64,000 nucleotides of DNA from a virus (taxonomy: Duplodnaviria > Heunggongvirae > Uroviricota > Caudoviricetes), in IMG/VR virus record IMGVR_UViG_3300045988_158256. One strand, 5' to 3'. How positions within the stretch are numbered: the first letter of the stretch is position 1; each line of letters begins with the position of its first letter. The notes under the pieces were generated by a model, which worked only from the letters and a program-made list of their open reading frames with translations, searched no databases and was not told the origin of the DNA. A program made the position numbers and the translations under genes. Positions 17,908 through 19,258 of this stretch are shown here, piece after piece.

Positions 17908-18372
17908 CAGGGTTTTCGTCATGGTTAGCGACTTTGCGGCGGTTTAGAAACTGACCATTAAAGTAAATGCAAACGATGATCTGATGATGGTAGCGGCCTA
18001 AGAAGCCAGACGCCACGGGGTATGAGTCGTCCCCCGTCAAAAAATCGACCGCAGAGTGTCCCCGTCTGTGTATTAGGGAACGGGGAGGCACAACAGGTAA
18101 GGGCGCTGGTGTGATTAACCAGATGAACGAGAAGGGGCCATCTGTTGGTCAGCGTCCTTTCCTGTTGCGTTTTCTTTTCAGCGTAACAGCGGTGCTTAAC
18201 AGCACTTTGGGTACAGTTCCACGAATTTACGGGTATATCCCGTCATGCTGAAAGCGCTAATCACGCTGGAAGCCAGGGTTATGCATCCCCTGTTACCGAA
18301 TTGCAGCCAGGGCGCGGTGCGCCGAAAAGCATACGGAGGTGGAAGCCCTCGCCGGAGACGTACCCGGCAAGT

Positions 18373-18448
18373 GATGGTGTAGCTCAGCGGTTAGAGCGGT
18401 TGACTGTTAATCAACGGGTCGATGGTTCAAATCCATCCACCATCGCCA
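18373..18448 (+). tRNA. tRNA-Asn (anticodon GTT)
   Basis: 76 nt; 7-bp acceptor stem gatggtg/caccatc, T-loop GGTTCAAATCC, anticodon loop CTGTTAA, genomic CCA. Confidence 0.85.
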
Positions 18449-18450
18449 AT

Positions 18451-18526
18451 GCCGGTTTAGCTCAGTTGGTAGAGCGCCTGCCTTGTAAGCAGGATGTCAG
18501 CGGTTCGAGTCCGTTAATCGGCACCA
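18451..18526 (+). tRNA. tRNA-Thr (anticodon TGT)
   Basis: 76 nt; acceptor gccggtt/aatcggc, T-loop GGTTCGAGTCC, anticodon loop CTTGTAA, genomic CCA. Confidence 0.85.
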
Positions 18527-18528
18527 GC

Positions 18529-18613
18529 ACAACAGGTAAGGGTATTTTGCGACGTCGGAGATCGCCGAGCTTGGCAGAGGGTTCGAATCCCTACGAAGTA
18601 CCCTTACCGTTGT
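18529..18613 (+). ncRNA. tRNA-like element lacking an anticodon arm
   Basis: Long outer stem caacaggtaagggta / tacccttaccgttgtg encloses a D-arm-like gcga...tcgc and a T-arm GGGTTCGAATCCC, but no anticodon stem-loop. Confidence 0.25.
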
Positions 18614-19258
18614 GATGAAGTGCAGCTCTTTGAAGCAACCAGAAGATAAGCATCTGGCTTCACAACATAAACCGCAGGAACGACCAATAAACGGTAGTCC
18701 GTATGGAGAACACCCCGTTGAGGAAGAGGCCTGGCCGGAACCGTAACCGGCACTACAACGTTGAGAACACTGGCGTAACGGGGTCATATCCCAATCTACG
18801 AATAAATGTTGCGTTGCAGCGTGACAACCAGTGTTCTCAACATTGTGGTGAATGCACAGGCTGATGTGCCGCAACTACAGTAGTGCGCGCTTTGCGGGGC
18901 TTGCTACAACCCTGTGTCGGAGTTCAGCACCGACCATCACAGTTTGATTCTCTGGCATGAGCATAACGCTGAAATAAGTCCAGCCTGGTGCGGCCCGATC
19001 ACCCGCCGTTAGCTCCACGAAACGGAGCACGTAACAGGTAAGAGCATTCTCCTGTAACGGGTTCATATCCCAATCTACAGGTCCACCAAGAATGCTCTTT
19101 CCGTTGCGGTGAATGCGGCTAAGCGCACGCGGGGAAATGGTTATATCAGTCCATTCATTTCTCCTTGTTTCCCCGTCCACGGTGGATAACCAGCCAAAGG
19201 ACACCGGGAGGCACCCGGCACCGCAGCTTTTTTATTCGTTAAATAATGGAGTGAGAGG

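Follow-up and report, generated by a model that had tools for sequence, protein, structure and literature searches.

Four hairpins with a common base among the tRNA genes of a P1-like genome

What are the four repeated elements that lie among the tRNA genes of a P1-like genome, and what might they do there? The window analysed in this study is the whole 64,000-nucleotide (nt) stretch of DNA in the IMG/VR record IMGVR_UViG_3300045988_158256, a P1-like phage or plasmid-prophage in which positions 17700–19260 are 98.5% identical to P1 variants. In this window, four short modules stand around tRNA-Asn and tRNA-Thr in an RNA-gene stretch of approximately 1.3 kb, which is the non-coding leader of the C1-controlled (C1-repressed) ban operon and has all its RNA genes on the plus strand. 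A sequence-only reading had recorded the modules and left three options for them, namely RNA elements that undergo processing, sequences degenerated from tRNAs, or sites bound by proteins. What recurs in the modules is a hairpin with a common base and an interchangeable interior, not one copied sequence. Beyond what that reading had seen, the core shared by two of them imitates the initiator tRNA anticodon arm, and the family to which they belong is far wider than the P1-like genomes.

Repeats, inverted repeats and folding recovered all four modules where they had been placed, on the plus strand. Module 1 (18089–18169) is closed by the helix CACAACAGGUAAGGGCGCUG / CAGCGUCCUUUCCUGUUGCG and has an inverted repeat (I3) at 18091–18108/18150–18167 (18 nt, 89%); module 2 (18528–18614) has a 21-bp closing helix and an inverted repeat (I9) at 18535–18547/18596–18608 (13 nt, 92%); module 3 (18751–18850) has a closing helix of 20–22 bp and an inverted repeat (I1) at 18751–18773/18828–18850 (23 nt, 91%); and module 4 (19029–19108) has a 19-bp closing helix and an inverted repeat (I6) at 19037–19050/19089–19102 (14 nt, 93%). 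Repeat D2 falls in both modules 3 and 4. Once the outer CACAAC/GUUGUG pairs are counted, the closing helices are 16–21 bp long and enclose 38–54 nt, which revises the 11–14 bp and 50–60 nt first described. Folding of the plus strand against shuffled sequences gave z values of −5.28, −5.29, −7.13 and −7.54 for modules 1 to 4, respectively, with none of 200 shuffles being as stable.

The helix base shared by the modules reads CACAAC(A)GGUAAG / CUUACCGUUGUG, and the interiors are unrelated. Exact copies of AACAGGTAAG were located by a repeat finder at 18092, 18531 and 19033, each at the 5′ base of a hairpin, and these are the common start that had been noticed in three modules; when up to 1 mismatch was allowed, 9 matches were found against 2.8 expected. 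The 3′ flank GTTGYGRTGAAKGC is common to modules 2–4. The core reported for two modules is a 25-nt sequence present in module 3 (18775–18799) and module 4 (19054–19078), with identity at 24 of 25 positions. No further copies of the modules were found in the window. Hairpins of at least 18 bp (G·U allowed) numbered 17 on the plus strand of the whole window and 7–15 in shuffles. Such hairpins are common by chance and not rarer in shuffles; their count was therefore dropped as evidence, and the significance of the modules rests on shared termini, clustering and conservation elsewhere.

The interiors, referred to below as cargo, differ from module to module. Module 1, with 16 bp in its minimum-energy fold, has a 43-nt interior that forms a hairpin of its own, in which no tRNA-like feature was found; in its orthologue in phage D6 the helix is kept and the bases are changed. 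The interior of module 2 holds a D-arm-like hairpin at 18549–18565 (GCGA-CGUCGGAGA-UCGC) and a canonical T-arm at 18578–18592 (AGGG-UUCGAAU-CCCU), without an anticodon arm. Modules 3 and 4 each contain an arm like that of initiator tRNA. In module 3 it consists of GGG at 18780–18782, the loop GUCAUAU at 18783–18789 and CCC at 18790–18792, and is accompanied by a second hairpin; in module 4 it stands on a 6-bp lower stem and consists of GGG at 19059–19061, the loop UUCAUAU at 19062–19068 and CCC at 19069–19071.

A wider family of hairpins

At least 26 sequence types of the same design were found and catalogued. Their hosts are P1-like elements, D6, SSU5-like elements of Escherichia coli and Klebsiella, SfV, ST64B, a Klebsiella siphovirus, prophages of Pantoea and Buttiauxella, and a lambdoid Q-to-S leader. 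In the 26 types, the closing helix has a median of 20 bp (range 16–27 bp) and the interior measures 7–82 nt, the whole forming imperfect palindromes that span 46–122 nt. Two members are plain 18–19-bp hairpins with 7-nt loops and carry no cargo. The base of the helix is conserved as CACAAC, often a bulged A, and GGUAAG, pairing with CUUACC-GUUGUG, and the distal part is variable but paired; the bulge is absent in 11 of the 26 types.

Alignment of the arms of 21 types, with rows that had been picked as hairpins, showed 94.8% of cells to be paired versus 35–56% with slid partners, and both sides have changed in 15 of 20 closing-helix pairs. On the tRNA-sense strand, the stems of the 26 types contain 51 G·U pairs versus 6 A·C or C·A mismatches, and 21 of the 26 types fold better on that strand. 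Covariation together with G·U pairs far in excess of A·C indicates a function in one strand, most simply as RNA. A simpler test with a fixed 20-nt arm gave a weak contrast between cognate and non-cognate partners (15.3 versus 11.9 pairs), since many types share ancestral arms and the compared stretches reached past the helix, and it was replaced by the column-wise count. A covariance model built on the closing helix could not serve to detect the family: the large interiors were not bridged, and only short chance palindromes were returned. At about position 17 of the closing-helix stem (alignment A2, columns 18/29), a U·G wobble is the commonest pair (13 of 21 types), with U-A pairs on both sides of it; this fixed wobble could be a recognition feature or could reflect shared ancestry.

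The exact core, which the first description had proposed to seek in other P1-like genomes, occurs in 101 viral stretches, all of them P1-like; some of these stretches are hybrids that arose by deletion between two cores or between AACAGGTAAG starts. Among the P1-like IMG/VR contigs L014, L030, L033 and L010, tRNA-Thr is joined directly to module 4 in one; other deletion variants are module 3/module 4 hybrids joined through the 24-nt core, in which the arms are left non-complementary. The tRNA content of P1-like relatives also varies, with Tyr, Ser or Arg added or Asn replaced. A pattern scan of 185,579 species genomes gave 24 matches, of which 4 were credible, all in Enterobacterales phage contexts; the other 20 were chance matches in unrelated taxa, our own rough estimate of chance matches being about 67. 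No Rfam family covers any of the modules, and no description of these hairpins was found in the papers retrieved on P1 tRNA-like RNAs, phage transfer-messenger RNA (tmRNA), KilS and VapC decoys. The hairpin family is apparently undescribed.

Position at the junctions of tRNA and small RNA genes

Modules of the family are always co-oriented with tRNA or small RNA (sRNA) genes and lie at their junctions, often 1–3 nt after the CCA end of a tRNA. In each of the six cases in which a module comes after a tRNA, it begins between −2 and +3 nt from the CCA end; the preceding genes are tRNA-Thr of the window, tRNA-Ser of D6, tRNA-Thr and tRNA-Ser of locus L105, and tRNA-Asn and tRNA-Ser of locus L106. 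Other modules lie 3′ of sRNA terminators or of the late terminator tR′, and 5′ of the STnc100/PasD-like start GGUGAAUGC. In SfV-like phages, the module is in the 5′ leader of an open reading frame (ORF). In the window, tRNA-Asn (GTT; 18373–18448, plus strand; ARAGORN, Rfam tRNA 74.5 bits) and tRNA-Thr (TGT; 18451–18526, plus strand; ARAGORN, Rfam tRNA 72.9 bits) had been regarded as bracketed by the modules. Module 2 is the only one to abut a tRNA, with its start 2 nt after the CCA end of tRNA-Thr; module 1 is 200 nt upstream of tRNA-Asn.

Units resembling sRNAs directly follow several modules. The unit 3′ of module 2 (18609–18666, plus strand; GUUGUGAUGAAG...CUUCACAAC) is also present in L105. 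Positions 18601–18666 are 95.5% identical in many SSU5-like phage-plasmids (about 110 kb) of Klebsiella pneumoniae, which otherwise have little DNA in common with P1 and possess their own tRNA array, Asn-Tyr-Thr-Ser, with five hairpin modules. After module 3, an STnc100-like unit closed by UGUGGUG...CAUCACA (18844–18942, plus strand) was inferred by eye from its likeness to the unit at 19105–19225 and from direct repeat D4; it scores below Rfam reporting and is also found in L105 at 2826–2925. Module 4 is followed by an STnc100/PasD-like sRNA unit and then a T-run (19105–19225, plus strand; Rfam RF02076, 37.8 bits, E = 5.8e-6), and the 5′ part of this unit is conserved in 78 phage records. With scores of 37.8 bits in the window, 39.5 in SfV and 35.1 in ST64B against a gathering threshold of 47, the flanking STnc100-like units are relatives of that family, not members by Rfam's own criterion.

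E. coli K-12 carries one member of the hairpin family, in the Rac prophage (NC_000913.3, 1418565–1418481, minus strand; L284 9482–9566), with the sequence CACAAC-A-CGAAGGCGCA...UGCGCCUCCG-GUUGUA. It lies just upstream of the sRNA gene kilS, and the order in Rac is hairpin, kilS, an STnc100-like unit (about 1418400–1418260, minus strand) and kilR. The annotated 5′ end of kilS falls within the Rac hairpin, which suggests that kilS is processed out of it. The Qin prophage has the order dicF, STnc100-like unit (K-12 1649434–1649600) and dicB, without a module, and in the CPS-53 prophage of K-12 the module has been lost. Based on the layouts of Rac and Qin, the P1 island looks like an expanded version of a common prophage leader of the dicF-dicB type.

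Cargo resembling the anticodon arm of initiator tRNA

The core of the SfV module reads ACGGGCUCAUAACCCAAUC, and its stretch GGG-CUCAUAA-CCC is identical to the arm that carries the anticodon in E. coli initiator tRNA. In SfV, 16 of 17 positions agree with this tRNA, and in ST64B 17 of 20 do so (p ≤ 0.005 versus shuffles). The initiator tRNA sequence used for comparison had a 100% identical counterpart in all 5426 E. coli genomes searched, the median copy number being 4.

Viral loci were scanned with the pattern GACGGG-N7-CCCAATCC, which leaves the loop free. The loop NYCAUNN was present in 106 of 120 loci, as CUCAUAA in 84, CUCAUUC in 12, CCCAUAA in 5, CUCAUUA in 3 and UUCAUAA in 2; CAU is invariant. 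Three G-C pairs closing the 7-nt CUCAUAA loop are exact in the SfV-type modules (84 of the 106 loci), and the P1 copies keep GGG/CCC, U33 and CAU. The unpaired flanks GAC and AAUCC, which do not vary, and the three G-C pairs are as conserved as the loop. Beneath them, the lower stem has 5 of 6 pairs changed on both sides and is 88% paired versus 24–56% when slid, in rows that had not been selected for that stem; its variants include CCGGA/UCCGG, CCGGG/CCCGG, CUGUCU/GGGCAG and CCAUGC/GCAUGG, and P1 has CCUGUA/UACAGG. In the mimic, pairs 27–43 and 28–42 of the tRNA are replaced by a conserved internal loop, so that the full 5-bp anticodon stem within a tRNA body is lacking, and there is no acceptor, D or T arm.

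Comparison of interiors with known tRNAs was significant for SfV_2 and ST64B_2 (initiator tRNA, p ≤ 0.005) and for Pant_1 (5′ part of tRNA-Ser, p about 0.01); the interior of module 2 of P1 gave p of about 0.06. A T-arm-like hairpin also lies inside the module of the L051 type, a P1-like variant that is rarer. At default settings, ARAGORN, and the Rfam tRNA model with E up to 10, matched only tRNA-Asn, tRNA-Thr and a CAU tRNA at 20331–20406, and ARAGORN at 80% thresholds added only a 'tRNA-Tyr' at 18508–18602 over module 2. The proposed tRNA derivation fits the cargo of modules 2–4, with their T-arm and initiator-like arms, but not whole modules, which no tRNA model detects and whose relatives mostly have interiors without tRNA similarity.

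Many SfV-type modules (L108 1693–1781 and the loci from L135 onward) have a second hairpin beside the mimic, with a loop containing CUCCUA(A/C)C. This loop recalls the anti-Shine-Dalgarno end of 16S rRNA, and the stem and the loop length differ by lineage.

Organization of the surrounding region

In the reference P1 record, the order is the end of dmt, the C1-controlled ban promoters with their operator, a 'dicF-like region', tRNA-Asn, tRNA-Thr and the minus-strand ORFs plp and upl. The C1 operator and ban promoter of the window are at 17685–17716 on the plus strand (P1 annotation Obanab/P1ban; palindrome ATTGCUCUAAUAAAUUU; inverted repeat I4) and are likely to be the promoter for the whole RNA island. 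The upstream edge of the non-coding island is formed by the dicF-like region (17811–17912, plus strand), transferred from the P1 annotation at 98% identity, with an intrinsic terminator at 17880–17907 detected by terminator scan. Downstream, the products of positions 19259–20303 are a small membrane protein and a lipoprotein with an SPFH/Band 7 domain (Pfam E = 1e-30), in place of which the reference P1 has tciA-tciB-tciC (TerB-like); Pfam searches of the neighbouring proteins gave nothing informative beyond the SPFH-domain lipoprotein. The CAU tRNA at 20331–20406 was identified by both ARAGORN and Rfam. An 11-mer, GGTGTAGCTCA, at 17661–17671 in the 3′ end of dmt is the same as the tRNA-Asn 5′ end at 18376–18386, probably by chance. 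The hairpin census of the window also contained a plus-strand hairpin of 21 bp at 14–101, 88 nt across.

Upstream of module 1, in the context 17906–18090, a reading frame at 17968–18000 (plus strand) resembles the tag of tmRNA. It runs GCA AAC GAT GAT ... TAA and encodes ANDDLMMVAA*, following a resume-codon-like GCA; the tag of E. coli tmRNA is ANDENYALAA*. Tags of this kind (ANDDLMMVAA, ANDDLMMAAA, ANEEVYLAVA, ANEEMYLAVA, ANDDVVLMAA and ANDNQYLAVA) were found in five phage lineages, all with 10 codons and TAA, the stop codon falling in a hairpin that is conserved. The segment thus has the resume GCA, the hydrophobic/Ala end and the stop codon in a hairpin that mark a tmRNA tag. A tRNA-like domain (G3·U70 acceptor stem, T-arm and CCA) was not found for 17906–18090 by ARAGORN at default settings, and the resume consensus was recognised by ARAGORN at lowered thresholds only. 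A permuted tRNA-like domain proposed by ARAGORN at 85% was rejected as implausible, lying inside the dmt coding sequence and having no counterpart in relatives. The match to Rfam tmRNA_permuted is weak (26 bits versus a gathering score of 47).

Proposed processing and role of the modules

With the anatomy, the wider family, covariation, strand bias, junction positions and resemblance to initiator tRNA as observations, we propose that the modules are transcribed RNA hairpin cassettes which undergo RNase III-type processing, separate tRNAs and sRNAs, and carry mimics of tRNA sub-domains, a reading to which we give about even odds. Transcription would start at the ban promoter. Unless it were opened by an endonuclease, a 20-bp hairpin situated 2 nt beyond CCA would stand in the way of the 3′ exonucleases by which tRNAs are completed. 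A double-strand-specific endonuclease, most plausibly host RNase III, would cut the closing helices and split the polycistronic ban-leader precursor into units. Such cleavage would leave a short single-stranded tail after CCA, to be trimmed by exonucleases, and so free the tRNA 3′ ends; it would also release the cargo as a small hairpin RNA. The cargos, as mimics of tRNA sub-domains, would probably serve as ligands or decoys of a tRNA-recognising factor.

Maturation of DicF in the Qin prophage involves both RNase III and RNase E, in keeping with the setting of the modules. The binding valley of RNase III accommodates about 22 bp of double-stranded RNA, and its in vivo cleavage sites are surrounded by a preferred W-S-S-W quartet, where W is A/U and S is G/C (PMC6212723). 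The closing helices of the 26 types, with their median of 20 bp, are of about this size (about 20–22 bp, or approximately two turns), and the conserved part of the helix offers A-GG-U and A-GC-A as candidate W-S-S-W quartets. Among the three options first listed for the modules, a structure acting at the level of a single strand, most simply RNA, is favoured by covariation, G·U excess and the RNA-gene junctions, and we infer that it is processed.

As to the cargo, cleavage of initiator tRNA by enteric VapC toxins falls in the anticodon loop, between A38 and C39 (PMC4105405), and one proposed purpose of phage tRNAs is to offset the action of tRNA-cleaving enzymes of the host, with phages generally avoiding genes for tRNA-fMet (PMC10264068). 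Possibly the cargo acts as a decoy for a tRNA-cleaving enzyme, or else is bound by MetRS, IF3 or the 30S P site. A bolder version, which we regard as speculative and unlikely to be right, is that the P1 ban-leader island and its SSU5-like, SfV/ST64B-like and lambdoid counterparts form a toolkit of translation-RNA mimics in RNase III-cleavable hairpins that neutralises, during infection, host enzymes attacking or inspecting initiator tRNA or tmRNA. In that version the toolkit would comprise the initiator anticodon-arm decoy, a T-arm/elbow mimic and a tmRNA-like tag template without a tRNA-like domain, and enteric VapC/MvpT toxins would be candidate host enzymes.

Several observations weigh against the cassette reading. 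The role of RNase III is deduced from helix length and position, and the conserved sequence at the helix base is unexplained by RNase III alone. The annotated 5′ end of kilS (1418502) lies in the AU-rich interior of the Rac hairpin, 7 nt before the 3′ arm, instead of in the stem, and so fits RNase E or a promoter as well as RNase III. The paired percentage of the closing helix is partly built in by the picking of rows as hairpins, the types compared share ancestry, and the G·U excess also fits a hairpin of single-stranded DNA. Natural deletion variants with broken helices (L030, L033 and L010) indicate that individual modules are dispensable. With regard to the mimic, the P1 loops are UUCAUAU and GUCAUAU versus CUCAUAA, with U or G at position 32 and U at 38, and position 37 is U, unlike in a tRNA, in 15 of the 106 loci. 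The other 15 interiors tested were at background for tRNA similarity, and most interiors resemble nothing.

Several other explanations were considered. tRNA genes in decay, persisting as remnants after the tRNA cluster was rearranged and having no function of their own, could produce incidental hairpins of this kind, and the canonical T-arm of module 2, the low-threshold 'tRNA-Tyr' over it, the tRNA-Tyr, tRNA-Ser and tRNA-Arg genes in the clusters of relatives, and the gain and loss of modules among P1-like genomes would all be expected from such a history, as would the likeness of a phage tRNA-Ser, in its 5′ part, to the Pantoea interior (p about 0.01) and of initiator tRNA positions 22–41 to the SfV and ST64B interiors. 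Decay would not, however, keep a helix of about 20 bp with compensatory changes over 26 types or preserve the mimic with its covarying lower stem in more than 100 contigs; moreover, no module is found by default ARAGORN or the Rfam tRNA model, most interiors lack tRNA similarity and two members have no cargo at all, which makes this origin rather improbable. Regulatory base pairing, in which the CAU loop and the CUCCU loop of SfV-type modules would serve as seeds on the start codon or Shine-Dalgarno sequence of mRNAs and the initiator likeness would be a by-product, agrees with the invariant CAU, with the CUCCUA loop in the second hairpin of many SfV-type modules, with the SfV-like module in the 5′ leader of an ORF, and with the neighbouring STnc100/PasD group, Pas sRNAs having been found Hfq-bound by RIL-seq (a ligation-and-sequencing method for RNA interactions). 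Yet no target complementary to the core loop better than chance was found in the 64-kb window, a simple seed needs neither the G-C pairs nor the GAC and AAUCC flanks that are as conserved as the loop, and modules with other cargo or none are left unexplained; we hold this alternative to be unlikely, while keeping it among the serious ones. A coding function for the minus strand, with the hairpins coincidental, receives practically no credence from us. The P1 reference annotates Plp and Upl, and in the window the plp homologue (18497–18874, minus strand) and the upl-like ORF (18875–19204, minus strand) are open, with 125 and 109 amino acids; but neither has a Pfam family above threshold, and among 37 P1-like loci the plp-like ORF retains no more than 77% of its length in 14, just 12 have an intact upl-like ORF, and the region varies from 505 to 1186 nt through indels that are not multiples of three. 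The plp ORF also runs antisense over tRNA-Thr, conservation follows the RNA helices, and the Prokaryotic Genome Annotation Pipeline lists almost no gene there in 1008 related plasmid records. The two ORFs, already judged almost certainly spurious by the sequence-only reading, are most likely annotation artefacts.

The possibility that the modules act in DNA, as recombination sites like the attC sites of integrons that shuffle tRNA and sRNA cassettes, has in its favour the imperfect palindromes of 46–122 nt with outermost AAC...GTT, covarying arms, a variable interior and often an extrahelical base, the cassette-like presence and absence with breakpoints in shared termini or core (L014, L030, L033 and L010), and a strand bias that would suit one folded DNA strand. 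It nevertheless appears very unlikely, since the R-box consensus (RYYYAAC / GTTRRRY) is only partly matched, at AAC/GTT and some flanking positions, the bulged base is absent in about 40% of types, the cassettes have no ORFs, and the family occurs in phages with unrelated recombinases, no integron integrase being annotated in the P1 region. Ordinary homologous recombination, acting on repeats of 13–25 nt, accounts for the breakpoints, the cargo motif has RNA-type covariation of its own, and exact placement at CCA ends together with constant co-orientation with transcription points to RNA. A miniature inverted-repeat or repetitive extragenic palindromic (REP)-type element was rejected on the grounds of unrelated interiors, the lack of extra copies in the window and only 4 credible matches in 185,579 species genomes. 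If the modules were instead signals for transcription elongation (boxA/nut-like or put-like) that make polymerase resist the terminators of the island, their frequent position just 3′ of intrinsic terminators might be understood, and the 3′ arms of several types do contain UGCUCUUAC or UGCUCUUUC, near to boxA of lambda nutR (CGCUCUUAC) and rrn (UGCUCUUUAACA). BoxA, however, is bound as single-stranded RNA; the GCUCUU string is present in a subset only and sits inside a stable helix, no boxB-like partner was seen, and a module 3′ of a terminator cannot help polymerase past that terminator. We consider such a role highly improbable.

In P1, one of the best-studied phages, two doubtful ORFs are still the annotation for 1.3 kb of the ban-operon leader, and recognition of the hairpin family corrects this. 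An Rfam entry would be one way to define the family, a modular RNA element common to many temperate enterobacterial phages and phage-plasmids. The family further suggests a way in which phage tRNAs and STnc100/PasD/DicF-type prophage sRNAs may leave common precursors. The mimic is present in more than 100 viral contigs and, if it proves to be a decoy or ligand, would represent a new kind of RNA-based counter-measure in the conflict of phages and hosts over tRNA.

Comparison with known systems

The modules resemble the RNase III stems of rRNA operons, T7 early RNA and the T4 tRNA cluster in being helices of about two turns between stable RNA genes of one precursor, co-oriented with and flanking tRNAs, in which the helix rather than the sequence is conserved. 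In rRNA operons, however, the helix encloses the functional RNA, whereas the modules enclose a small variable cargo and leave the functional RNAs outside; in addition, the base of the module helix is conserved in sequence across unrelated phages, and its cleavage is a prediction. STnc100/PasD sRNAs (RF02076) are represented by the units that directly follow modules 3 and 4, as well as many family members, on the 3′ side, and the junction GUUGUG-GUGAAUGC is conserved, but the modules themselves are outside the Rfam model and the local copy is under its gathering threshold. With attC sites and miniature inverted-repeat elements, the modules share imperfect palindromes, AAC...GTT ends, variable centres and cassette-like gain and loss. 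They differ in having no integron integrase, target-site duplication or near-identical dispersed copies, and in occurring solely within arrays of non-coding RNA, where their orientation always follows transcription.

Compared with the anticodon stem-loop of initiator tRNA, SfV-type modules have the same three consecutive G-C pairs and CUCAUAA, identical over 13 nt, and the likeness in SfV and ST64B runs 5′ into tRNA positions 22–28. The two lower stem pairs are different, being replaced by an internal loop (GAC / AAUCC) on another, covarying stem, and the rest of the tRNA is absent. The thrS leader of E. coli is an operator that mimics tRNA. As in that leader, a lone look-alike of an anticodon arm is set within a larger RNA, and SfV-like modules are also found in a 5′ leader; unlike it, the modules have no known cognate binding protein, the mimic stands on a 20-bp helix, and in P1 it is not beside a translation start. 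Finally, phage tRNAs proposed as counter-measures (PMC10264068) occur, like the modules, in a phage tRNA cluster and in enterobacterial hosts with tRNA-cleaving toxins, including VapC. Those are whole tRNAs, whereas the cargos of the modules are fragments, which could therefore serve only as decoys or inhibitors and not as replacements.

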